Of a stretch of 64,000 nt of DNA, positions 14,205 through 52,203 are shown in pieces; positions within the stretch are counted from its first letter, which is position 1; every line of letters starts with the position of its first letter. Source of the DNA: Octopus vulgaris (lineage: Eukaryota); assembly GCA_951406725.2 (NCBI GenBank), contig OX597832.1, positions 9,486,001 through 9,550,000 of the forward strand, written 5' to 3'. The notes below the pieces were generated by a model, which had not been told where the DNA came from, did no database searches, and was given only the letters and a program-made list of their open reading frames with translations. Position numbers and translations under genes: made by a program.

Positions 14205-14792
14205 ACCCCAACCATCCACCGTCACATGTGATCGGAGATACTTAAAAACACTGATCTCCTATAACATCTCACCATTTATACTCACATACATTCTATCTCT
14301 CGAAAATCTCATCATCTTACTTTTAGCTACATTCATTTTCAGTTTCCTCCTCTCACGTACTCTTCCAAAATCTACCACCATTTTCCTCTGTTGCTCTTCC
14401 GAATCCGTCGCCAATGCTGTATCGTCAGCAAACAGTGACTGACTCACCTGCCATTCCTCTCCATTTTCTCCAACAATTTGGTGTCCCTTCCCAAACGTTC
14501 TAGCATTTACTTCTCTCAACACACCAAGCACGGAAACACAACACAACCCTATTTTAGGCTACCTTCACATCAAAATACTCACTCACTTCACCACTCATTC
14601 TAACGCATGCCCGACTTTATAAAAGCTCTGAACTCCTCTCAACAATATACCATCTACCCCATACAACCGCAACGCCTGTCACATTGCATCTCTATCCACA
14701 CGTCATATCCGAACGTCCATAAAGACCCTCTCTTTTGCCAAAATCTTCTCACTCATCTGCCTTAGTACAAATATTTGATGCATACACCCCCT
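14205..14792 (-). mobile_element. RTE-clade LINE reverse transcriptase fragment (pseudogenised)
   Basis: QIFVLRQMSEK...EWQVSQSLFADDTAL...RRKLKMNVAKSKMM...FKYL; FADD catalytic motif; stops and frameshifts. Confidence 0.85.
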
Positions 14793-27253: not shown

Positions 27254-28549
27254 CGAGGGACGTTCAATAAGTAATACCCCTGACCCACTTGCATCTCTTT
27301 GATTTAGCTGAAAAATTTGCATGTGCAATTATTTATATCTCTATAGATTAAGTGACAAATTACAGCTCTGAACTAATTGCGGTTTCTGATTTACAGGTGT
27401 TTGAACTGAGTCAAATGTGAAATGGAGCCTGTTCAGTGTCGAGCAGTGATCCGGTTTTTGTATTTGAAAGGGCCCACACCACAGGGGGACTTTTGATGAA
27501 ATGAAAGTAACTTATGGTGATGATGTCCCATCATATGACCTTGTAAAACGCTGGCATCGTGAATTCAAACATGGTCGGAACTCTGTGGAAACAGCTCCCA
27601 GATCTGGTCGCCCCCCTTCTGCTAATGATGAGGTATCTGTCCGTCAAGTTGAGGCTGCCATTTTGGACGATCGACGCATAACTATTCGCCAAATAGCCCA
27701 TGTGGTCAAGATTAATACCGGGCCTGTGGAAACTATCATTCATGACCATTTGCATATGCAAAAGGTGTCTGCCTGATGGATTCCCAGGTTGCTCACACCT
27801 TTCCAGAAGCAAGAACGCGTCTAGTGCTCGAGGATGAATTTGGAGATGTGCCAAGAAGATGAGTCAAAATTTTTCAAAAGACTGATTACACAGGATGAAA
27901 CCTGGGTCCCTCACTATGATCCAGAGACCAAATCCCAGTCAATGCAGTGGACGCACCGTGACTCACCTCCTCCAAAGAAGGCAAGGGTGCAACCCTCCAC
28001 TGGCAAGGTCATGTTCACAGTCTTCTGAGATCAGGACGGAGTAGTGATGACAGATTTCCTGGCAAATGGTACCACAATTACAGGAGCCTATTATGCTTCA
28101 CTTTTGAGGAAATTAAGAGAAGCTATCAAAATTAAGAGGCGGAGCAAGATCAGCAAAGGCATCCTCCTCCTGCAGGACAACGCTCCGGTCCACAACTCGC
28201 GTGTCCGCCAGATCAGAAGCACAGGCGTGCGGCTATGAACTCCTCCCCATCTCCCCTACTCTCCAGACCCTGCACCCTCTGATTTTCACCTCTTCCCAGC
28301 CATGAAGTTGTTTTTGAAAGGAAAGCGTTTCCCAGATGATGCAGCCTTGCTTTCTGAAGTCACTTCGTGGTTGGAGGACCAAGCTGGGTGTCTTCTACAA
28401 AAACGGTCTCCAGAGCTGCATCAAACAATGGGAGAAATGCGTAACTCTGGGTGGTTCCTATGTAGAAAAAGACTAATAACTGTGCCAAGTTTCGTTGCTC
28501 TACTTCTATGGGAAGTGGCTCAGGGGCATTACTTATTGAACGCCCCTCG
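27254..28549 (+). mobile_element. Full-length mariner (DD34D-type) element with inactivated transposase (~27422-28475)
   Basis: ~37-bp TIRs CGAGGGACGTTCAATAAGTAAT.../...ATTACTTATTGAACGCCCCTCG, TA on both sides; motifs PRSGRP, WIPRLL, QDETW, QDNA, PYSPDPAPSDFHLF; several stops and frameshifts. Confidence 0.93.
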
Positions 28550-32784: not shown

Positions 32785-33243
32785 GAAATCTCGAGTTGCA
32801 CATGAGAAAGTAAGGAGGGATGTCAGGAAGGGCATCGCTGTTACACTTACAGATGGGAAGGGTCTTCCTTTGATGCTGACATAAACATGTCTGTGCAAGA
32901 CCCTGCCTCAGTAAAGCTGGACTCAAGAGTCATCTTCGTAGTCATAAAGCGGGACAGATGAGTGATAACCTGGCCATTGATGGTGGTGTAAAACACCATA
33001 CTAATCATATCTGTCGGGCATGTGGAAGAGAGTATAATTCGGCAGGACTTAAACGACATGCAAAGGTACATGAAGCCGAGTTACAACTACAGCCTGCTAT
33101 TACCGGTAAAGGTTTTAGTTGCCAATTCTGTACCAGACATTGTAGATCTTTAGCTGGGCTAAAAATTCACATTCGATCACAGCACCAGTAACAGTTAAGC
33201 TTCGTGCAATGGCCATACTCGATAACGAGGGGGCAGCCATAGT
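32785..33243 (+). mobile_element. RTE-like LINE 3' end with two C2H2 zinc fingers
   Basis: ORF 32958-33191 CRAC..LKRHAKVH and CQFC..LKIHIRSQH; terminal ATGGCC..GGCAGCCAT hairpin; flanked by (TATG)n. Confidence 0.55.
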
Positions 33244-35592: not shown

Positions 35593-36790
35593 GAGCTTCT
35601 GGGTAAACAACATTCTTTGTTTCCTAGTTTGGAGCATAGACAAATAAGTATTGCAAACTACCTACTCTGGAGCAACCAACATGAATTTGACCATGAGAAA
35701 AGCAAGCCAGTAGATTTCAAAAACTGAACTTGAGCTTTATCACTAGACATTGCAAAGCAAAGTCGCACTGTGTTCATTTGAACTCAAATGGTATGTGTGT
35801 TGGTTTGATTGGAATTCTTGGAATCAAAACCTCTTCCCCAGAGGCACATCCACTGATGATGGTAGCATCTTTCGCATTAGGTGATAATGTATTCACAATC
35901 AATCTTGTCTCATTGCATAATTTAGGAAGATCTAAATTCCTAAGAAGCATTATTGGGACTCCTATCTTCAAAAACAATTTATGTGGAGGAATTCCCTATG
36001 GCTCAAGAGAATTAAAGAACACTGTTGGGTAATGGATAGCTTGTACTTCTTAATGACTATTGGAATCTTATTCATTAATTCATGGTTAATCCTTGCTACT
36101 CTCTAATGTGTTATAATTATCACTTGAGTCTGACAATACCTTTTCCTTCAATTCAGCTGGGAAATTCATCATGATAGCAATATGAGCCAAACTGATATAA
36201 CCATTCCCATCAAATGGTACTTTTCCCATTATTTAATTGGAGGAGCCAGGTTGAAAACTGTTTTGCCCATGGGTTCCGATGTAATGAAGCTCTCACGTTA
36301 GTATTGAAAGAGAATTTCAGTACTTTATTCCATAGGTGTGAAGACTTAATGCATGCTTTATTTCATAAATATCTTGTTCGTCTCAGACTGGCTGGTAAAG
36401 ACAGAAATCTCCTGATAAAACTAATGTAACTCCTTCCATAGACCTATTGTAGCATCTGTTGTCCTGAAAGGTCTTACCAAGATGTACGATTGCACCTCTA
36501 TATGACATGGTGCATTTATCCCAAATGATAAGGTAGCATTGGTACAACAATTGTGCTGAACCTGAATTGTTGCTAATGTTACAAATTTGATTGTCATTTG
36601 TGACCAGGTTTAGTGGTAATTTAAAAGCAGAATGAGTTGTTCGACCTCCTGGAAGAACGGTGGCAGGGAAGCAAGACAAGGATACAGCAACCACAAGTCC
36701 TTTATGTTGCCTTACTTTAGAGAGAAGCTATGTTACAAATGTTTTGCCTGTACCACGAGGAGTATTAAGAAAGAAAATTCTTCTGCTTTT
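35593..36790 (-). mobile_element. Helitron PIF1-family helicase pseudogene
   Basis: Walker A IFFLNTPRGTGKT, LPGGRTTHSAFKLP, IIWDKCTM, SGDF, GVPIMLLRNL..KLCNETRL, IPRIP, SHGQ..CSRVG. Confidence 0.9.
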
Positions 36791-39843: not shown

Positions 39844-40069
39844 CGCTGTGGGATACGTTAGATGTTCCTTGAAAGATGCTTCGTAAGTTCTGCTTTAAAC
39901 TTTATTTTTCACCCTGTCTTTACAAGTATATGTTATTGATTTTTCCTATAAACTGACAAGATAACTAGAAACCAGCTGGTAGGTTTTCTTCCCTGAAAAG
40001 GGCGGTATTTATTCATTTACCTATTGCACTCAAACAACGCCCCATCTTGTGTAAACCAACACAAACACA

Positions 40070-40310
40070 CAAGATGGCGTCGACGTCATCATCATTAACA
40101 TCGGTATTTGCAACCACCACGGATGCTTTGAGGTGGGAAACCGTTCCTGCCACCAGCACTCTCCAGAAACAAGACTTCCCTCCTCATATCACTCTCTCCT
40201 AGCGACAACAACAACGGCAAAATGACCACCAGCGCCACCACCACCACCAACAACAACAATAATAACAACAACTACTATTACTCCTCCTCCTCCTCCTCCT
40301 CCTCCTCCTC

Positions 40311-40368
<58 letters not shown>

Positions 40369-41740
40369 AGTAGCAATCTAAGCAATGTCAAAACTTGCGA
40401 AGAGTATGGAAACCGTTACAACAGTAGCAGCAGCTGCGACGAGAGTGTCGATGGCAGAGGTGGCGGAAGCAATAGTGATGGTAGCGGTGAAGACAGCAAA
40501 GGCTGCGACGCTACGAAAGGTAATAGCATTGAAAACTTCAGCAATAAATCAGCAGTGGCAGTGACAGCAGCACGGGCGTCGGTGGTGGAGGAGAAACTGA
40601 AGGCAGCGGTGGTAGTGTTGGTGGTAACAGCAGAACAAGTGGCTTATGCCCCACCACTAAAACAAGAGTAGCAGTAGCAACATGAATAACAACAGCAAGA
40701 AAAACCAACACCAACAACAAGAACACTTTCGCAGCAGCCAAAATGGGACCCCATTGAAGTTTTTAAAAGGGTTCTCTAAAGAGCCCGCACCAATTATGCA
40801 ATTCGAACAACCCGACCTCCACAATACACCGGGAAGTAAGGAAACCTTTCCTCTCTCTTCTTACCTTGTCAGCAAGGCCGTCTTAGGAAGCTTAAATGTT
40901 CGAGGCTTGGTGTCGCCTTAGAAGCAGCAGCGTCTGCTCGGCGAACTCAGGTTCTTAGAATTGGGTGTAACACACGCACACTAGTCCCTATTTTCAACGA
41001 CTGTCAGAACTTTGCATCTGTTAGTCGGCCTACTGAAAGCTGAACATGTCGTTTCTGGCACGTAATGTTTACAGGGACCGGGTCAACAGTTTAATTCGGC
41101 AAAAGTTGACAGGAAGAGATGTCAACAACAGATGGTGGGCTCTCAGAAGGGAGATTAAAGCAATATCGGTGAGGTTTAACAAAGAAGTCACGCTAGAAAG
41201 TAGGCGGAAGAAGCGATGTTAGACGAGATTATTTGAAGTTGCATTGCAACCGATGAGACCATTTCTTCAATGTAAAACATGAATGGTGCATTGTCAGAAC
41301 TAAATCTCCTTCTCTAAGATAAGCGGGAACCAAAGCTGTTAGATGGGCTAGCGTGGCGGATGCGTAACGTGCTAACAAAACCACAATTCGGTCTTTGATG
41401 CCCGAAACGGACACAAAATTAGCGATTCTAGGCAGGATTGTGAGGGTTTTCACCAGCAATTTGCTCCGTTCTTCGTGGGGAGTGGCGGGTCAGAAATGAT
41501 ATCGGATTTCAGTCCCTACCTGAGAATGGCAGACCTCATGCAACCGAAATTCTGGATGCCCTTGTCGGCTGCATGAGGCGCAAGTCAACCGGTTTGTATG
41601 GTCTCCCCTATGAGTGTTTTACGTGAATATGCCACACTTGTTCTCCGATTTCCTCGAAATACTCTACTGCAACTGGCAGTAGAAGAGAGTATTCCCAGTT
41701 CTGTGAGCCTGAACGTTCTGGTAAGTACCAAGTTAACAGA
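40070..41740 (+). mobile_element. Highly decayed Tx1/L1-like LINE 5' part
   Basis: GC-rich 5' region starting CAAGATGGCG, APE endonuclease start LGSLNVRGL (~40882), YCNWQ RT segment (~41665). Confidence 0.5.
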
Positions 41741-42559
41741 CAGAGCTGCAACTTTCTCAGAAGACATGATAATTGAATCCTGTCCAAATGTTTGTGATTT
41801 TACGCCAGTAAAATTATGTAAAATGTTTGTTTTCCACCTTTACTGTAATACAAACCGATAAACATAGTCCGCCTCCAGCAACTATTTACCATGTGCAATT
41901 TCTGGAACTATTCCATCTGCTTTAGAAACAGACATGAAATTCCACACGTTTTTGAGACATAATGAAATATTATATAATTTATGTCTGTCTTCGTATTCTA
42001 CGGCTTCTACAAAGAACATATTGTATATTTCATGTAAATGTCATCGCATGGTCGCTGTAACTTATTTGAGCAGATTCCAAAGAGCAAAATACGGATGTTG
42101 ACAGCAACAACAACAGCAGCGATAATGCGTTTCTCCTTGAATTACTAAAAGTTTCAGTGCTATCTAACATCAACTAAAAGAAATCTAAATTGTCACTTGA
42201 TTGATTTCTACTAAAAAAAATTTGAATAGTAAATGTTGGTAATAGAACAACGGAAAGAATCGTTAGACTGCTACGTAAAATGCTTCACTGCATTTGCAAA
42301 GGTTCTCACAATGTACTGGGTTTAAATCCTATCAATGCCATATTGGCTTTTCAGAATATCGTTTCCGGTAGGATGAAAAGTATCTGGGCCGCAAGATATG
42401 CCGAAGTCAATGATGTTAAACCGGTAGCATTGTAATAATTTTTTCCTGAATCTCCTTTAAAAGACCGCTATGACCTAATTGAATAGCAGCATAAAATTCT
42501 TGTCCGGTTTAAAATTCCACTTGACATTGCACATAATCTGCTCCTGTGTAAACACTGTT

Positions 42560-42715
42560 GCTATATTCACTTGGTGAAGAATGGAGTTTGATATAGCTAC
42601 TGTCATTTGCACCTGTTGCCGTGAGGTAGGTTCAGCTGGGACTCTCGACAGGAAGATGTCCAGCTTCGATTTAAAAACCGCTACATCTACTTTGTGCAAG
42701 TTCCTCAGAAGATGA
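42560..42715 (-). mobile_element. CR1-group LINE C-terminal fragment
   Basis: LRNLHKVDVAVFKSKLDIFLSRVPAEP..SNSILHQ. Confidence 0.55.
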
Positions 42716-42892
42716 CAGGTCATGGCTATTGGATTCCATCCTGACTAAAATATAAAATAAAACCTTAAATAGATTATAATCTCAACGATTAAAGCCAGTC
42801 CAAGCTTAAATATCCGCACATTATTCAATAAATATTCAAAATTATAAATCATTAAGTAGAAATAGCACTGACTAATTATTTTTATATATAGT

Positions 42893-43085
42893 TTATTTCT
42901 TTACTACCCACAAGGGGCTAAACACAGAGGAGAAAAACAAGGACAGACAAAGGGATTAAGTCGATTACATCGACTCCAGTGGGTAACTGGTACTTAATTT
43001 ATCTACCCCGAAAGGATGAAAAACAAAGTCGACCTCGGCGGATTACGGCTACGCATTTCACCTGGCGTGCTAACTTTTCTGCCAT
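42893..43085 (-). mobile_element. SINE family B copy (internal deletion)
   Basis: Reverse complement of 21004-21234. Confidence 0.8.
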
Positions 43086-43669
43086 TTATATATAATTGAT
43101 TCTAACAGCAATCGGTTAGATTTTCCACAGGATACTAATCAAATATTTACCAAGTTATTTCCAAGATTGGTCTTAGTTGATCAAATTTTAGGAACTGGTT
43201 AATATGGCTATTCATTTCGTTTCGAAATGGTATTGTATAGACTACGCATAGAACAATATAAGCAATATTCCATGAGTAATTCCATAAGAAATGCATAACT
43301 TTTATGCATTCATAAGATTTTCGTTTCATTTCATTTAAAATCCTTGATACTTAACATGCAAAATATTTTGGATAACGTAATGTACTCATAAGTTTCCGCA
43401 AGAAACGCGTTTTAAATAGAAACATATTCATGCATGCACACACACACATATGTGAATATATGTATATATGTATATACAATTATATATATATATATAGATA
43501 TATATAAATAAACAGGTTGCTTGGCCTCATACCGAAAAAAATTAGAAATGGCAGCCATAGACTGTTTATTTCTATTTTCTACAAATAGGACTCCGCATAC
43601 GACATATCCCTGTAATTCACATATGCAAAAGAGAAGGAATAAATAACGAAAACAAAGTCTAATGGTCAT

Positions 43670-43723
43670 TTGCGAAAATGTTTCTAGATCAGAGATATAA
43701 TTACATATCTTTCATCAGCGCAA
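43670..43723 (-). ncRNA. Candidate type I hammerhead ribozyme (second structured repeat family)
   Basis: TTGCG-CTGATGA-A-AGAT...ATCT-A-GAAA-CATT-TT-CGCAA; stem I TTGCG/CGCAA. Confidence 0.5.
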
Positions 43724-43915
43724 CTCTCCATAAAAATAGATTTATCAAATGCTACGTACCCCATCCTTCTGACCAGGTGACATCAAAAGAGTGGAAGAAA
43801 ACGATTATAGGCTAAACCTAAATAGAGAGTTGAATTCGCAAATTTTCCCTCCAAAATTTTACCATGAGCATTACTAAAATATGGGTTGTCGTACGGGAGT
43901 GAAAATTCCAATTGG

Positions 43916-44215
43916 TAATATAATAATAAGAGTAAATAATTTCTTTAATGGTTTTAAAAAAAACAACAATTATTTACTGGTAGATTTCGGCATGTAAATA
44001 TAACCATAAACGGTAGGAACTTCTGTAAAGTTCAGTGTATATATATATTGTATATAAATAAAATTGATATACAATTTATATACAATATATATACACTGAA
44101 CTTTACAGAAGTTCCTAACGTTAATGGTTATATTTACATACCGAAATCTACCAGTAAATAATTGTTGTTTTTTTAAAAACCTTTAAAGAAATTATTTACT
44201 CTTATTATTATATTA
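43916..44215. repeat. ~300-bp palindrome of an interspersed repeat (arms 43916-44059 / 44074-44215)
   Basis: Arms nearly identical in inverted orientation; a single arm recurs at 47236-47375. Confidence 0.9.
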
Positions 44216-44227
44216 TACATACATATA

Positions 44228-44290
<63 letters not shown>

Positions 44291-44349
44291 AGAGAGAGAG
44301 AGTTGAAAAAACAAAAGATGAAGACAGGTGTATGAACAACAAGCAGTTG

Positions 44350-44393
<44 letters not shown>

Positions 44394-44394
44394 G

Positions 44395-44435
<41 letters not shown>

Positions 44436-44469
44436 TGTATGTATGTATGTATGTATGATGTGTGATGAA

Positions 44470-44848
44470 ATTATTATTCAATCCAAGGAAAAACAGAATC
44501 TTTCAAATGAATTGAAAACATCCAATCTTCACTGGTTCTTCAGTTAAACAACAATATAGTAGAGAAAATAATCATAAATCAAACTGGTATAATTTCAATA
44601 TATAAATATTAAAGGAAACACATAAATACAATTGACATATAAATTTATTAACATTATAATATAATATAATTAATTTATAAAAAGATATACTATAATATAA
44701 TTATACTATAAGAAATATATTATAACAACAAATCATTAAAACAAATATACATTGGTTTTAATCATTTATTATTTTATATTATATCTTTTTATAGTATAAT
44801 TTTATATTATGTTAATAAATTGTATGTGAATTGTATTTGTCTATTTCC

Positions 44849-44853
<5 letters not shown>
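44470..44853. mobile_element. Inverted pair of PLE terminal-repeat fragments related to 17095-17320
   Basis: Minus strand CTCTACTATATTGT..CTGAAGAACCAGT..ATTGGATGTTTTC..CCTTGGATTG matches ~17220-17310; 44770-44853 is inverted relative to ~44605-44700. Confidence 0.65.
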
Positions 44854-44933
<80 letters not shown>

Positions 44934-45157
44934 TCAATATAGGGTGGCAAAAAATTTCGTAGAATTTTTTTTTGCCACCAGCGGCCTAGTGGGAAAAAAT
45001 TAAATAGTCATAGACCATTTATAAGTTCAACATCACAATCAAGGAACGGCCATAATAAACCATTCACCCACTAGAAATAACAGCCAAAGCTTCAACCGCA
45101 AAAACAACATCAATTCCGCAAACCAGGAGAAAATTAAAAAAACATTTACCCTATAAT

Positions 45158-45260
45158 TTCTTATACGATGCACCGTTTCATCTATTGTTTAATGGTAAAC
45201 TAACCTGATTAAATTAAATCAAGCCAATCTTCCATAGGCCGATAGATTCGTCAGTAAGAA
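45158..45260 (-). ncRNA. Type I hammerhead ribozyme, copy 1
   Basis: TTCTTA-CTGACGA-ATCTAT...ATAGAT-GAAA-CGGTGCATCG-TA^TAAGAA. Confidence 0.88.
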
Positions 45261-45663
45261 CAGCCAGATCGGAACAGATATTTTCACGAGGCACTTCTAT
45301 CCCTGCCTCGGCAATATCTGACCTAAAATTTTCAAATCATCGCACTTGCGCCAAATTTATCGGCAGCAAATATAAGCCGCCGATTCCATTACGGAATTAA
45401 TCAGAAAATTCCTAATTAATCAATATAGGGTGGCAAAAAATTTCGTAGAATTTTTTTTTGCCACCAGCGGCCTAGTGGGAAAAAATTAAATAGTCATAGT
45501 CCATTTATAAGTTCAACATCACAATCAAGGAACGGCCATAATAGCGGCTTATATTTGCTGCCGATAAATTTGGCGCGAGTGCGATGATTTGAAAATTTTA
45601 GATCAGATATTGCCGAGGCAGGGATAGAAGTGCCTCGTGAAAATATCTGTTCCGATCTGGCTG

Positions 45664-45766
45664 TTCTTACTGACGAATCTATCGGCCTATGGAAGATTGG
45701 CTTCATTTAATTTAATCAGGTTAGTTTATCATTAAACAATACATGAAACGGTGCATCGTATAAGAA
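45664..45766 (+). ncRNA. Type I hammerhead ribozyme, copy 2 (one mismatch in basal stem II)
   Basis: Core CTGACGA 45670-45676, GAAA 45745-45748, GUA cleavage predicted after 45760. Confidence 0.85.
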
Positions 45767-46148
45767 ATTACAGGGTAAATGTTTTTTTAATTTTCTCCTG
45801 GTTTGCGGAATTGATGTTGTTTTTGCGGTTGAAGATTTGGCTGTTATTTCTAGTGGGTGAATGGCCTATTATGGCCGTTCCTTGATTGTGATGTTGAACT
45901 TATAAATGGTCTATGACTATTTAATTTTTTCCCACTAGGCCGCTGGTGGCAAAAAAAATTCTACGAAATTTTTTGCCACCCTATATTGATTAATTAGGAA
46001 TTTTCTGGTTAATTCCGTAATGGAATCGGCGGCTTATATTTGCTGCCGATAAATTTGGCACGAGTGCGATGATTTGAAAATTTTAGGTCAGATATTGCCG
46101 AGGCAGGGATAGAAGTGCCTCGTGAAAATATCTGTTCCGATCTGGCTG

Positions 46149-46251
46149 TTCTTACTGACGAATCTATCGGCCTATGGAAGATTGGCTTGATTTAATTTAA
46201 TCAGGTTAGTTTACCATTAAACAATAGATGAAACGGTGCATCGTATAAGAA
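46149..46251 (+). ncRNA. Type I hammerhead ribozyme, copy 3 (intact)
   Basis: Stem I TTCTTA/TAAGAA, CTGACGA 46155-46161, stem II ATCTAT/ATAGAT, GAAA 46230-46233, stem III CGG-TGCA-TCG, cleavage predicted after 46245. Confidence 0.9.
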
Positions 46252-46372
46252 ATTACAGGGTAAGTGTTTTTTTAATTTTCTCCTGGTTTGCGGAATTGAT
46301 GTTGTTTTTGCGGTTGAAGCTTTGGCTGTTATTTCTAGTGGGTGAATGGCCTATTGTGGCCGTTCCTTGATT

Positions 46373-46406
<34 letters not shown>

Positions 46407-46408
<2 letters not shown>

Positions 46409-46566
46409 GGATTGGCTCTGTGGTAAGCAACTTCCTTACATACCACACCGTTCCGGGTTCAGTCCCACTGCATGACACCTTGGGCAAGTGTCTTCTACTG
46501 CAGGCACGGGCTGACCAAATCCTTGTGAGTAGATTTCGTAGACGGAAACTGAAAGAAGCCTGTCGT
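46407..46566 (+). mobile_element. SINE family A 5' part
   Basis: GGTTCAGTCCC B-box, CCTTGGGCAAGT core, GACGGAAACTGAAAGAAGCC. Confidence 0.8.
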
Positions 46567-46625
46567 ATATATATATATATATATATACATATATTTATAT
46601 ATATATATATGTGCGTGTGTATGTA

Positions 46626-46672
<47 letters not shown>

Positions 46673-46733
46673 ATGGGTGTGTATATATATATATATATAC
46701 ATATATTTATATATATATATATATGTGTATGTA

Positions 46734-46782
<49 letters not shown>

Positions 46783-47235
46783 GGGTGTGTATATATGTGT
46801 GTGTGTGCATACATCTATATAGTAGGATGCAAGCAAGACTTAACTATTCTAATCACTCGGAATGCACATAATGCAGCAACAAGTCGTCAGCACTTGCATG
46901 TTATTACATTCTGTGCATAATAAAGACATAAAGGAGTTTGCATCAAATATGCCACTACGGTGTGGCTAAATGCATTAGTTAGTACCAACGTCCTCACACA
47001 TTACTCAAGTGAAGAAGTTGAATTGCTTGTCTATACTGTGTGTATTTGTTATTGTTATCTAGATTCGGTGGTATATGGATAAAACAAGACTCGTGGAAAT
47101 AACAGCCTAAAAATCGTTGAAAGTTAATAATTGTTTTAAATAGATTAACTAATTTGTGTCTTCTCTGCTGGGAGTATATAACATTTGCTAATCCTCTCTA
47201 CGTGTTACCAAATACATGCCATTCGCATCCAAATA

Positions 47236-47478
47236 GTAATATAATAATAAGAGTAAATAATTTCTATAAAGGCTTTTAAAAAAACCCCGATTATTTACTG
47301 GTAGAATTCGGTATGTAAATATAGCCGATTACCGGCAGGAACTTCTGTAAAGTTCAGTATATATATTGTATATAAGAAAAAGGGACAGGCAAAACAGGTT
47401 GCTTGACCGCATACCGAAAAAATAGAAATAGCAGTCAAGAATGCTTATTTCTGTTTTGCCTGTCCCTTGTTCTTATAT
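47236..47478. repeat. Copy of the second structured repeat family with a 28-bp hairpin (47370-47397 / 47451-47478)
   Basis: Matches 43916-44059 and 43510-43575. Confidence 0.75.
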
Positions 47479-47809
47479 GCCATCAGCATCTATAGATTAG
47501 TTAGTCACATACGAACAATTCTGCTTAGATTATCTAACTCTGTTTACAAGTCCAATGTATTTATCTATTTTAATACATAATCCCTGCTGCTACTGGTGAA
47601 AGATAATTCTCTGTGTATTACTATATAACACACGGATCACATTTTATAATATAAATTGCATCAGTTGTATCAAAAGTAAATATGGTTAACATATTACTAT
47701 TGAGGGCACGATAAACTTTGATTACAACACTGCTATTGGAAATAATGTTTCACAAACAATTTTAACGTCCATGGAGATGGAACCCATAATCCTGAGTATT
47801 TGAATATAT

Positions 47810-47865
<56 letters not shown>

Positions 47866-48525
47866 GAAACTGTTTTATATGTAATAATGATTTTTTTAAC
47901 TAGATGGAGGTGTTGTTACCAGTCTACGAGAAGAGGTATCGTTATGTGAATCATAAGCTGTGCTGTGAACAAACATTTCTTAACACAGAATATCACTACA
48001 AACGTTTCAGTGGTTCAATAGATTGAGATATAACATCAGGTTTTCCCACATCTTGTCCACAATGATTCTTGATCCCTACGTTCCAAGCTTCAGACACTTT
48101 TATCCAAAGCTCCTCGACGGCTGTATGCTGACAGACAATGGAAGCAAGAGAGGGGTTGGAATCACCACTGTGGCAGAATACACAGTTTGTATTCTGTCAA
48201 AATTATACTTTTGTTTTACCAAGTTATTCAATAGCAGACATCGTTACATTAATTAAATAAACCAGAAAGATGTTGTCATGTGGATTTAATTGATATTTTT
48301 GATGAAATCAAGGCATAGATTAAATTCCTGTGTGAACTTAAAACACCCAATCGTATGGTTGTGCATTAAATTTGTTGCAATGTTGACTCAAACATTTCAG
48401 ATATTTTTTCGATTGTATGGTATTTAATAGTCTGTACAGGTTTCTTTGTCAATATTACAATTATGCTAAACACGACGAACGAACTTTTTCCTCACCCTAG
48501 TTGATGTGACTGATAATAAGTATAT

Positions 48526-48874
48526 TTACTCTTTTACTCTTTTACTTGTTTCAGTCATTTGACTGCGGCCATGCTGGAGCACCGCCTTTAGTCGAGCAAA
48601 TCGACCCCGGGACTTATTCTTTGTAAGCCCAGTACTTATTCTATCGATCTCTTTTGCCGAACCACTATGTGACGGGGACGTAAACACACCAGCATCGGTT
48701 GTCAAGCAATGCTAGGGGGACAAACACAGACACATACACATATATATATATATATATATACATATATACGACAGGCTACTTTCAGTTTCCGTCTACCAAA
48801 TCCACGCAGTGGGACTGAACCCGGGACCATGTGGTTGGTTAGCAAGCTACTTACTACACAGCCACTCCTGCGCC
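48526..48874 (-). mobile_element. SINE family A copy (internal deletion)
   Basis: Reverse complement of the family. Confidence 0.85.
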
Positions 48875-50855
48875 TATTATATTATAGCTATTTATTTATT
48901 TTATTTCGTACAGAAGTTTGAAATGTTCTTGGAAACTGATGTGAATTTTTAAACAACGGGTGTTATGAAATCAAGCTAAATAGATAGATATTATGTTATG
49001 GATAAATTTATGTTGTGCTTTGCTTTTGATGAAGCGCTGCGAAGATAGATGGTATGAAATGTTTTCGGTGGAATCAAATTGATGGATTTCGTTGCTACTG
49101 AATAATTTCTCAGGATCCGCTTACGTGTACTTCCTGACATTCTGAATGAAAGTAGTGTAAGCCTATTTGTCAAAATGTAAACAAGTGTGTGCCAACTCAT
49201 ACAAGTCTTTTACGCAATGATAAAAGTTTGACTGCCAAACAATATATAGTAGAATATAAGTAAAACGTGTTTCATCTATAAATAATTATTTATCCATAAA
49301 CTTTGTAGTAGTGGTATTTAGTGAATTTCTGTTTAGGCAAACTACTTTGTTACCACTCCAATGCCTTTGTTATCTAATTGTTGCAAACAGCAAATGTTAG
49401 AATTGCCTGTAGTGTTCGGTTTCTTGGCATGTCTAGCTTGATAAAAACTAAAAGAATTCCGAAATGGATGGAAGTTGCTGTCAATAATAGATGCAAAATA
49501 GACTTCTTCATTTTCTGCGAGAATAAATCACTGTAGGCACCCCATAGAGTAGAAATAAATAGGGAAACTGTTATCTTCTTTACAGTAGCTAAATCGGAGA
49601 ACAAAGTTGATGAAGTGCACAATTAATCAATACATAAAAAGGACATAAATATAAAGGTGAACTGCGGACGTACATGTACGTTGAATACATCTGCAGAAAC
49701 ATGCTGAATGTATGGGAGGCGGTGATTAACCCTTATGCACCAAAATATTCTAAGGAAGTTATATAAATCTTCGATTAAAATTTAGTCTTATTTTTGCTTG
49801 CGGTATTTCGTATTACTGTTTTTTAATATCATTCTTTTCCATTCGTTTTCCATTCGTTTCATCCTGGTAATCGCTGAACAGTAAAAAAGGGTTAATTATA
49901 TTTATTTATTTATTTTATATTTCAAAGGAGATTATATGAAACATCGTTTAGCTTCAATTTGGTTCAATAGTTCCTCTCGGGTAAAATAAAAGTTGATTCA
50001 GTTCAGATGCCAAAAGTGGTCAGTGACATTTCAAGACAAGTTATATCTTCGAACGAACTTTCCTTTGCAGAGATATAATGAATTACGTTACTTTTAAATC
50101 ATCTCTTCTAACTTAAAATTGTTTGACAATGGATTGTCGCTAAATATGTTATTAACCAGTACACATTGTGTTCAGGCTTTCAAGCATTAGGAATTTTGTA
50201 AATGTAAACTAAATAAGCTATAGAATGTCACATGAATTTTGAAGGTCAGAAATGTCGCAGTTAAAGAAAAACTGAGTTAATAGAATATAGATTTAACCGC
50301 TTGTGATTTATTCTATTTTTTATCGTTTTATCAATACTGTTTTATTAGATTGGGAACAAAGAATATATGAAGCATCGGTCCATGATAACATTTTTGAAAT
50401 ATTAAATTCCATAACGTATAATGTTCCAGTGCTTATAGTATTAAAGATTGAACTGATAAATGAATTTAGAGAAAGATGCACATTTATTGTTACTCAAACT
50501 CGACAACATAACAGTATAGATTAAGAAAAAAAACATAATTATAAAAGAGAAACCATCAGAAACATCATCTCATGCGTACAGAAGAGTTACAGTGCTTTAA
50601 AGTCACAGTAACTGGTCGTGATGAACTAAATGATTCAATGTGCCCTGAACAATTCAAAGCAAAAAACGAAAACAGGATAAACTTGAAAATATCCATTGTT
50701 GAAAAAATACAAAGAACTGTTATAAACAACTCTAAATAACATATTCAACTAACACTCACACAATCACAGTTACAACTGAAAGCGCAAACATCAACGAGAG
50801 TTAGAACACACTTTAAACAACAGGATAATCAAAATCACCGTACCACGACTAAACA

Positions 50856-50910
<55 letters not shown>

Positions 50911-50912
<2 letters not shown>

Positions 50913-51780
50913 CGGGAAGCTTTATGAAAATAAACAAAAGACGAAGGCAGGTGGAAAACAAACGAACAATTGTATTAGTATGGCGCTCAGGAAATATAAA
51001 TAAAACAAGTCTTTAACGTTTCGAGCCTACGCTCTTCAACAGAAAGATACACAGAGAGAAAAACACAGAAAGAAGGAGAGAAAAAAATGCGTGCAGTAGC
51101 TAACGAATCAACATGGCGATCTGATTTCGGCCAGAGGTCAAAGATCAAACATGAGACGCGAGAGCGAAATAAGGGAGATAATAGGGTTGAGGGACCAGCT
51201 AAAAGTGCGTGGGAGGGGTCTGGATGTGTATGTATAGGGTTGGTGTATGTATTAGTATGTATAAGGGTGTGTGTGTGTGTGTGTATGAGAGAGTATCAGT
51301 GTGTGGGATTGGTCTGGACGTGCGTATGTATGGGGTTGGTGTATGTATTAGTATGTATTAGTATGTATTAGTACGTATTGGTATGTATAGGTGTGTGTGT
51401 GTGTGTGTGAGAGAGTATAAGTGCGTATGCAGGGTCTGGACGTGTGTATGTATAGGGTTGGTGTAAGTATTAGTATGTACTAGTATGTATTAGTACGTAT
51501 TAGTATGTATTAGTTGGTGAGTGTATTAGTATGGCACATCATATGTGATGTGATGTGTAAAGTCATGTGGTGTAGTGAGGAGAAGAGGGAGGGATAATTA
51601 ACAAAAAAAAACAAAAGACGGAGAGATGTGTTATAGACAACAAACAGATGTATTAGTCTAAAGCTCGGGAAGTGAAAAAGTATTTAACGTTTCGAGCCTA
51701 CGCTTTTCCACAGAAAGGAACACAGAAAGAAACAAGGAGAGAAAATAAAGAATGTGAAGTGGCAAGCGATCTACCATGGC
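50911..51780 (-). mobile_element. Two tandem Penelope-like terminal-repeat fragments with minimal hammerheads (51011-51046, 51682-51717)
   Basis: CTTT-CTGTTGA-A-GAGC-GTAG-GCTC-GAAA-CG-TT-AAAG and a diverged second copy, separated by GTATGTATTA-type repeats. Confidence 0.6.
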
Positions 51781-51791
51781 CCATATATATA

Positions 51792-52203
51792 CGGGGTGCG
51801 ATCAATAAATATCCGGACTGTTGCCATAGTAACGAGGCTCAAACACGAAGAGTAAAGCCATTTGCCACAAATTGACCTTGAACTCTGCTGAGCAAACGCA
51901 CTATGTTTTAACGTTCTAGATCACTTCTGCTGTATACAGTGGTGCTTTCGATGAAAGTGTGTAGCGTGTTGTCGAGGAATTGACAATGACAGAGGAAGTT
52001 TAGAAGAGAATTTGCATTAAATGTTACCAAACGCTTGGAGATAACCTCTCAGTGGCCTCGCAAAAATTTCAAATAGTTTTGATCTTTCTAGACACAATCA
52101 AGATCTTGCGCAACTGAAACTCGACTGTTCTTTTGGTCTGCTGAAAACGGTTTGGGCACAAACTTGGCAGACACGCGTCTCATACCCAAATCTTCGGTGA
52201 TAA
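51792..52203. mobile_element. Rearranged mariner remnant
   Basis: TIR-like start TACGGGGTGCGATCAATAAATATCCGGACT; plus-strand MTEEV*KRICIKC; minus-strand ITEDLGMRRVSAKFVPK. Confidence 0.65.

Follow-up and report, generated by a model that had tools for sequence, protein, structure and literature searches.

The hammerhead-bearing repeat at 44,931–46,377 of the window (the whole 64,000-nucleotide stretch of Octopus vulgaris DNA analysed here) belongs to a dispersed family that was likely copied into (AT)n microsatellites by the reverse transcriptase (RT) and endonuclease of a Penelope-like element (PLE), acting on one RNA that was either a ribozyme-cut linear molecule or a circle. Judged by its sequence, the element is best classed as a new family of the known non-LTR retrozymes and not as an autonomous PLE. 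It consists of tandem non-coding units with one hammerhead ribozyme (HHR) each, combines a GC content of 37% with a stable fold, shows no LTR layout in 128 loci (the absence of a PBS and PPT was judged by eye), encodes neither the RT nor the GIY-YIG domain of an autonomous PLE, and shares its genome with autonomous PLEs (781- and 811-aa frames in many near-identical copies).

A 25-mer from the HHR had 716 exact matches in the 2.8 Gb genome and a 20-mer near the 3' end had 4,117, with no matches for either reversed control. The first 100 matches of the 20-mer fell into 36 loci over 68.7 Mb, from which the family is extrapolated to ~4,100 copies at roughly 1,500 loci. The 128 loci examined comprised 36 in their order along C1 (set A), 52 chosen through a full unit or HHR (set B), and 40 new loci identified from their 3' junction (E1 end, see below); irregular arms and the two-insertion loci L079 and L087 were left out of some counts. 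Full units measured 483–494 nt, and arrays reached ~10 units (L121). Nested or neighbouring second insertions of the family were seen at L119:4076-4276, L079 and L242, including a short piece (unit 12–234) at a two-arm junction. Assembled contigs from four sequencing runs with three organism labels covered all 29 unit bins; as two of the runs were guessed to be RNA and two were of uncertain type, and the contigs carry no strand, end or circle information, they were not counted as expression evidence. A metagenome pattern scan gave 17 matches, all of which, when compared to the unit profile, were confined to ~70 nt about the pattern, and these were taken as chance.

Architecture of the window locus and its hammerhead motifs

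The features of the locus are collected in Table 1, where unit coordinates (1–485) count from the first base after the predicted cleavage site (window position 45761). The sequence-only reading of this DNA had described three tandem copies; three HHR cores are indeed present (starting at 45670(+), 46155(+) and 45254(-)), but they are distributed over an inverted and a direct arm placed head-to-head. Its picture of a large, highly structured and non-coding unit was borne out (no ORF of at least 120 aa in the unit; monomer fold at z = -5.7 against 100 shuffles), as was the 485-nt spacing of the predicted plus-strand cleavage sites. The insertion had also been called young; as the copies here differ at 14 sites (2.3% pairwise, compared to 0.6–0.7% pooled within loci), the locus is instead one of the older insertions sampled.

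Table 1. Features of the retrozyme insertion, in window positions.
Feature	Position	Strand	Remark
(AT)n target microsatellite, left half	44853..44930	.	Tandem Repeats Finder, 39 copies
Inverted arm, 613 nt, spanning one cleavage site from unit ~107 to unit ~234-236, where E2 (the second of two fixed 3' ends) lies at 44931	44931..45543	-	
'Tail', ~104 nt (unit 133-236), at this end only	44931..45030	-	
Intact type I hammerhead motif, predicted to be cut between 45164 and 45163	45158..45260	-	cleavage from hammerhead consensus
Head-to-head junction of two 5'-truncated arms, unit ~107 vs ~269	45543..45544	.	
Direct arm of 834 nt or 1.7 units, with its 3' end at E1 (unit 132), the first of the two fixed 3' ends	45544..46377	+	
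Hammerhead motif with stem II mismatch, probably crippled; nominal cleavage after 45760	45664..45766	+	
Monomer, cleavage to cleavage, 485 nt, 37% GC, no ORF of at least 120 aa	45761..46245	+	
Predicted RT-start module: hairpin + TTGATT + 5 nt = E1 (45892); again = E2 (45996)	45846..45996	+	putative function; helices maintained by compensatory changes in the sister family
Intact type I hammerhead motif, long stem II extension, palindromic TGCA loop III; predicted cleavage after 46245	46149..46251	+	
(AT)n target microsatellite, right half	46378..46405	.	

The motif consists of stem I TTCTTA/TAAGAA, the core CTGACGA and then GAAA-CGG-TGCA-TCG-TA, and has the CUGANGA / GAAA / NUH core and stems I–III of a type I HHR, with stem I open. 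A full HHR had been attributed to each copy, which holds for those starting at 46155(+) and 45254(-) but not for the first plus-strand copy. There, stem II reads ATCTAT/ATACAT, the stem II extension carries two further substitutions, and the HHR-constrained fold reaches -11.1 kcal/mol, compared to -26.4 kcal/mol for the second plus-strand copy, in which the HHR fold lies 2.1 kcal/mol above the minimum. With its first plus-strand HHR damaged in this way, the window locus may not release a unit-length monomer. An Rfam search of window positions 40000–52000, the check suggested by the earlier reading, returned no hammerhead match up to E=1, which leaves motif, pairing and variation as the basis of the HHR call; the matches that were returned were microsatellite and hairpin miRNA noise only.

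Among 200 complete copies at 75 loci, N7 (the free position of the core) holds all four bases (C, T, G, A), H17 (the cleavage base) is either A or C, the fifth pair of stem II has changed from A-U to G-C in 8 loci, and loop III has changed from TGCA to TATA, both palindromic, in some copies. Inherited variation lies at places where a functional HHR tolerates change. Stem pairing is kept in 99.3% of cells among 41 aligned copies, a count that includes one doubly changed pair only and is of a kind inflated by relatedness. At the 12 core positions, inherited changes (0/91) and single-unit changes (6/181) did not differ significantly (p=0.18). An HHR with a short stem III and a palindromic loop has been described as working through dimers (PMC4209133). 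In the predicted fold of the circle, stems I and III are mostly unformed, which we list against our preferred explanation; it would protect the circle from cutting. Neither Pol III A/B boxes nor AATAAA occur in the unit, which has a single TATAAA (unit 141), and no promoter was recognised.

Directly right of the insertion lies a repeat (46406–46565) that we take to be SINE-like, and the same repeat is found beside (AT)n at several other loci. Further occupants of the window are a MITE-like palindromic element of ~300 nt at 43916–44215 (139-nt arms, 94% complementary), with a partial second copy, a relative, at 47228–47422; PIF1 helicase fragments (PF05970, PF21530) at 35777–36727 (-), probably a Helitron remnant; a C2H2 zinc-finger frame at 32880–33188 (+); an HTH_32 transposase-like fragment at 27468–27773 (+); an RT fragment at 14262–14558 (-); and a ~122-nt tandem repeat with 10-nt sub-repeats at 51204–51514. 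Scanning 120 of the 282 candidate frames for host gene context gave no match within 8 kb of the locus, and tblastn with one resident PLE protein gave no match in the window.

Insertion ends, truncations and haplotypes across the family

The 3' ends of the copies lie at two fixed sites 104 nt apart, unit ~132 (E1) and unit ~236 (E2), both of which read hairpin, TTGATT and 5 nt. Two-arm insertions with assignable ends had one E1 and one E2 in 55 of 55 cases and the same end twice in none (7 more had one irregular end). When the 40 new loci were selected through E1, the partner end was E2 in 30, irregular in 4 and E1 in 0, giving a combined count of one E1 and one E2 in 85/85 assignable insertions, with 11 more having one irregular end. 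Single-arm copies ended at E1 in 15 cases and at E2 in 11. (AT)3 occurs within 14 nt beyond 139 of 142 E1/E2 ends, all 31 new E2 ends lie at a (TA)n/AT-rich target, and the copies are variably truncated at the 5' side, as are PLE-mobilised insertions.

PLE insertions have been described with partial tandems, an inverted copy that is truncated at its 5' side, a one-ended tail and a (TA)n bias (PMC8557442), and the insertions with one E1 and one E2 end in (AT)n carry this tandem/inverted/'tail' signature. Purified anole PLE protein, a predicted dimer, cleaves both DNA strands and extends them, and it initiates RT at two internal sites bounding the tail (PMC11167929). The mobilisation of a metazoan non-LTR retrozyme by Penelope-like RT, which the sequence-only reading had put forward, is supported by this signature. 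Such mobilisation has been proposed from co-occurrence and sequence kinship in three papers (PMC7229834, PMC7761336, 10.64898/2026.07.22.740005), the accessible text of which does not report insertion ends.

That the inverted arm arose by cDNA fold-back or LINE-type twin priming, and not by two independent PLE primings, strikes us as scarcely credible. Arms stopping at the same unit position do form palindromic junctions, which would suit fold-back. However, among the 23 pairs in which neither arm reaches past the cleavage site, 11 (hand count) have sequence in each arm that is missing from the other, so neither arm is a copy of its partner. L1 twin priming, for its part, is unlike the retrozyme arms, which overlap in sequence, have fixed and different 3' ends, and lack poly(A). 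Two independent primings remain the preferred origin of the two arms.

To describe 5' truncation, arm stops were counted per base travelled, by turn. In set A, 13 of 23 first-pass 5' stops fell in unit 1–40 (rate ratio 5.7, p=5e-5, in a window picked after seeing set A), whereas the ratio on later turns was 1.35 and not significant. The prediction was then written down and tested on the new loci, where 16 of 36 first-pass stops fell in unit 1–40 (ratio 3.6, p=2.6e-4) and later turns gave a ratio of 1.03; the L242 array, cut off where the retrieved sequence ends, entered this replication as a later-pass stop. Position 1 is the stopping point of both arms at L240. A structural pause would act on every turn and a cut end on the first turn only, so that a cut 5' end is favoured. 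From the excess of stops just after the cleavage site, confined to the first pass, we infer that the germline does use linear RNA cut by the HHR as a template, in a fraction of events. The run-off seen here differs from the anole, for which PMC11167929 has no RNA-seq reads ending at the HHR site.

The arms of an insertion are further tied to each other by where they stop. Across 56 two-arm pairs (23 from set A and 33 new), same-turn stops within 10 nt in both arms were found in 15 pairs, compared to 1.9 expected, and both arms stopped in unit 1–40 on the first pass in 11 pairs, compared to 3.5 expected (0/20,000 permutations in each case). Unit divergence, analysed like haplotypes and unit variants with homopolymers and unit 340–391 masked, was 0.7% within loci and 4.3% between them (86 loci). 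Twenty-five alleles unique to one locus were fixed in every unit of the insertion, 19 of these across both arms and orientations, while unit-specific variants recurred across loci 24 times (several being alignment artefacts) against 28 by chance. Single-haplotype arrays of this kind fit rolling-circle copying of a monomer circle. At L090, L119 and L126, long arrays hold variants common to several units, which points to some growth after insertion or local duplication.

The same PLE-driven insertion could have used an uncut multimeric read-through transcript as the template of the long arms, with arrays regrown by unequal crossover and no circle needed. Uncleaved RNA was the dominant substrate of the anole PLE in vitro (PMC11167929), 8 of 9 Xenopus retrozyme dimers showed no cleavage in vitro (10.64898/2026.07.22.740005), and the arrays with variants common to several units also agree with such a template. 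It is harder to reconcile with locus-unique alleles fixed in both arms and in as many as 6 units, with the lack of ordered recurrence of unit-specific variants between loci (in a sample of 128 of ~1,500 loci, under a tenth, in which inheritance from multimers could be missed), and with long arrays in several haplotype lineages; repeated 5' truncation would, moreover, shrink multimers. We therefore regard a multimeric template as unlikely and a circular one as the preferred source of the long arms.

Candidate helper PLEs and a sister family

The genome contains thousands of PLE fragments, and two families are young and intact. The first (L051-L065, e.g. L054:1044-6290) is ~5.2 kb including the pseudo-LTR, with an upstream 479-aa ORF overlapping a 781-aa RT and GIY-YIG frame and copies that are mostly 97–99.7% identical. 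The second (L166-L185, L077) has a 4.0-kb unit with an upstream 495-aa frame, an 811-aa frame and a 41-nt tail, and has the top score over 200 aa in ~60 copies. Both end in (AT)n, have inverted arms and tails of ~40 nt, and encode a Cys-finger before GIY-YIG, a feature that marks Neptune and Nematis (PMC8557442). An HHR-like motif with a U3-A8 core was seen by eye in both. Several other PLE families, which differ in their 3' UTRs and mostly end in (AT)n, were noted at L066, L067, L069, L070, L138-L150 and L256, and one has two tandem ~290-nt repeats in its 3' UTR.

The unit might alternatively be the pseudo-LTR of a rare or lost coding PLE, with the arrays as deletion derivatives and the ribozyme as a passenger. 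Xenopus retrozymes do match PLE pseudo-LTRs (10.64898/2026.07.22.740005), unlike the retrozyme here, which had no match to those examined. Searches by blastn and profile of 88 mostly PLE loci, a small part of the PLE fragments, found no coding PLE that shares unit sequence, and the profile search gave only a separate 53-nt insertion and the sister family described below; of 6,136 GIY-YIG and 11,196 RT candidates, the top ones alone were scored, and tblastn used one resident protein, so that distant PLE clades could be missed. A terminal repeat always lying by the ORF of a Penelope element, the outcome that the sequence-only reading had named as fatal to its proposal, was not seen in 128 loci, where the unit runs into itself or into the flank. 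PLE ORFs do occur near the unit, but at the six such loci with a junction that was read (L006, L077, L078, L080, L131 and L256) they are set off by other sequence, e.g. their own 3' UTR and (AT)n. Together with a sister family that is also ORF-less at about 470–485 nt, this makes an origin as a pseudo-LTR very improbable, and a retrozyme moved in trans by a PLE is the reading followed here.

The sister family, which is older, came from the profile search (3,168 first-look candidates, with ~90% identity among the top matches). In the 26 loci examined, its units are 466–485 nt long, arranged in tandem and inverted, and devoid of ORFs (L163:1290-1740 and L186-L211, e.g. L187:1497-1981 + and L210:1500-1984 +). 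Its HHR motif reads GAAAC-CATG-GTC, the core is often TTGANGA (U at position 3), and the 3' ends lie near unit 150–162 and 250. The two families are roughly 60% alike, as judged by eye. Of the predicted pairs, 23/70 are changed on both sides between them, most densely in the helices around E1, a comparison that represents essentially one divergence event and in which the HHR part is misaligned. These doubly changed pairs nevertheless point to a lineage that is old and has conserved much of its fold, and away from a recent PLE deletion.

A proposed cycle and its place among known systems

The cycle that we propose would begin with (1) read-through transcription of an array, followed by (2) hammerhead cleavage, probably as a double hammerhead, as suggested by sequence variation and the clustering of 5' truncations. 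Some monomers would then (3) be ligated to circles, as shown for other retrozymes. An enzyme, presumably of a PLE, would (4) cut (AT)n, and both DNA ends would prime RT at unit 132 and 236, in keeping with the observed end pattern. On a cut linear RNA, (5a) both cDNAs would run off near position 1, and on a circle (5b) they would go round, giving arrays of up to ~10 units and one haplotype; both patterns are observed, and the forms of template are those that would best account for them. Finally, (6) the two cDNAs would be joined head-to-head, or one would be lost.

A broader reading, on which our own judgement is evenly divided, is that the entire retrozyme/PLE cycle has left its fossil record in the genome. 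A PLE enzyme with two active sites would use one RNA with two structured sites and prime from both ends of the (AT)n break; cut linear RNA would give the short run-off and ligated circles the rolling-circle arrays. The RNA would be a parasite of PLE proteins that mimics structure without sharing sequence, and would form an old lineage of its own.

Metazoan non-LTR retrozymes (PMC7229834; 10.64898/2026.07.22.740005) likewise have a non-coding tandem unit of a few hundred nt with one type I hammerhead, low GC, a strong predicted fold, a short stem III with a palindromic loop, and PLEs in the same genome. Their units are about 170–400 nt (PMC7229834) or 51–972 nt long (10.64898/2026.07.22.740005), compared to 485–494 nt here, and the accessible text of these two sources does not describe dispersed (AT)n insertions, inverted arms and two fixed 3' ends such as those found here. 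Circles and cleavage have been shown for known metazoan retrozymes and are predicted for the present family. A Repbase match was reported for 24 of 57 retrozyme families (10.64898/2026.07.22.740005). In the literature covered, we found no octopus or cephalopod retrozyme and no such insertion signature for retrozymes; an entry in the supplement of PMC7229834, in Repbase or in Dfam is possible.

The EN+ PLEs (Neptune/Nematis/Naiad, PMC8557442; anole Poseidon, PMC11167929) share partial tandems, 5' truncation, an inverted arm, a tail at one end, a (TA)n/AT-rich target and a hammerhead upstream of the 3' ends. The retrozyme differs from them in lacking an ORF, in its tail of ~104 nt instead of 30–40 nt, and in having a canonical rather than a minimal hammerhead. 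Non-autonomous Chlamys elements such as MRC1 (PMC8557442) are similarly non-coding, multicopy head-to-tail and attributed to PLE machinery; they differ in that their 3' end resembles that of autonomous partners, and they belong to a clade without canonical hammerheads, in green algae. Plant LTR retrozymes and hammerhead viroids also have a structured RNA processed by ribozymes, and a block of the ribozyme in the circle is predicted here. The plant elements, however, have type III hammerheads, LTRs, PBS/PPT and 4-bp TSDs, none of which were seen here, and viroids replicate from RNA to RNA, whereas the retrozyme is present as thousands of genomic DNA copies.

The integration of animal retrozymes and the role of the hammerhead in the PLE cycle are described as open (PMC7229834, PMC7761336, PMC11167929, 10.64898/2026.07.22.740005). 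What is new here, as the genomic patterns suggest, is replicated evidence on mechanism, namely priming from both ends on one RNA, run-off where the ribozyme is predicted to cut, and arrays of a single haplotype. The family yields predictions at the level of single bases (two RT start sites, one RNA per insertion, and cut as well as uncut or circular templates), and with a 485-nt template and intact resident PLE proteins these can be tested in vitro. The family also provides a way to explain why PLE insertions in general have a tandem/inverted/tail structure and, should the circle be confirmed, would represent natural rolling-circle reverse transcription into an animal genome.
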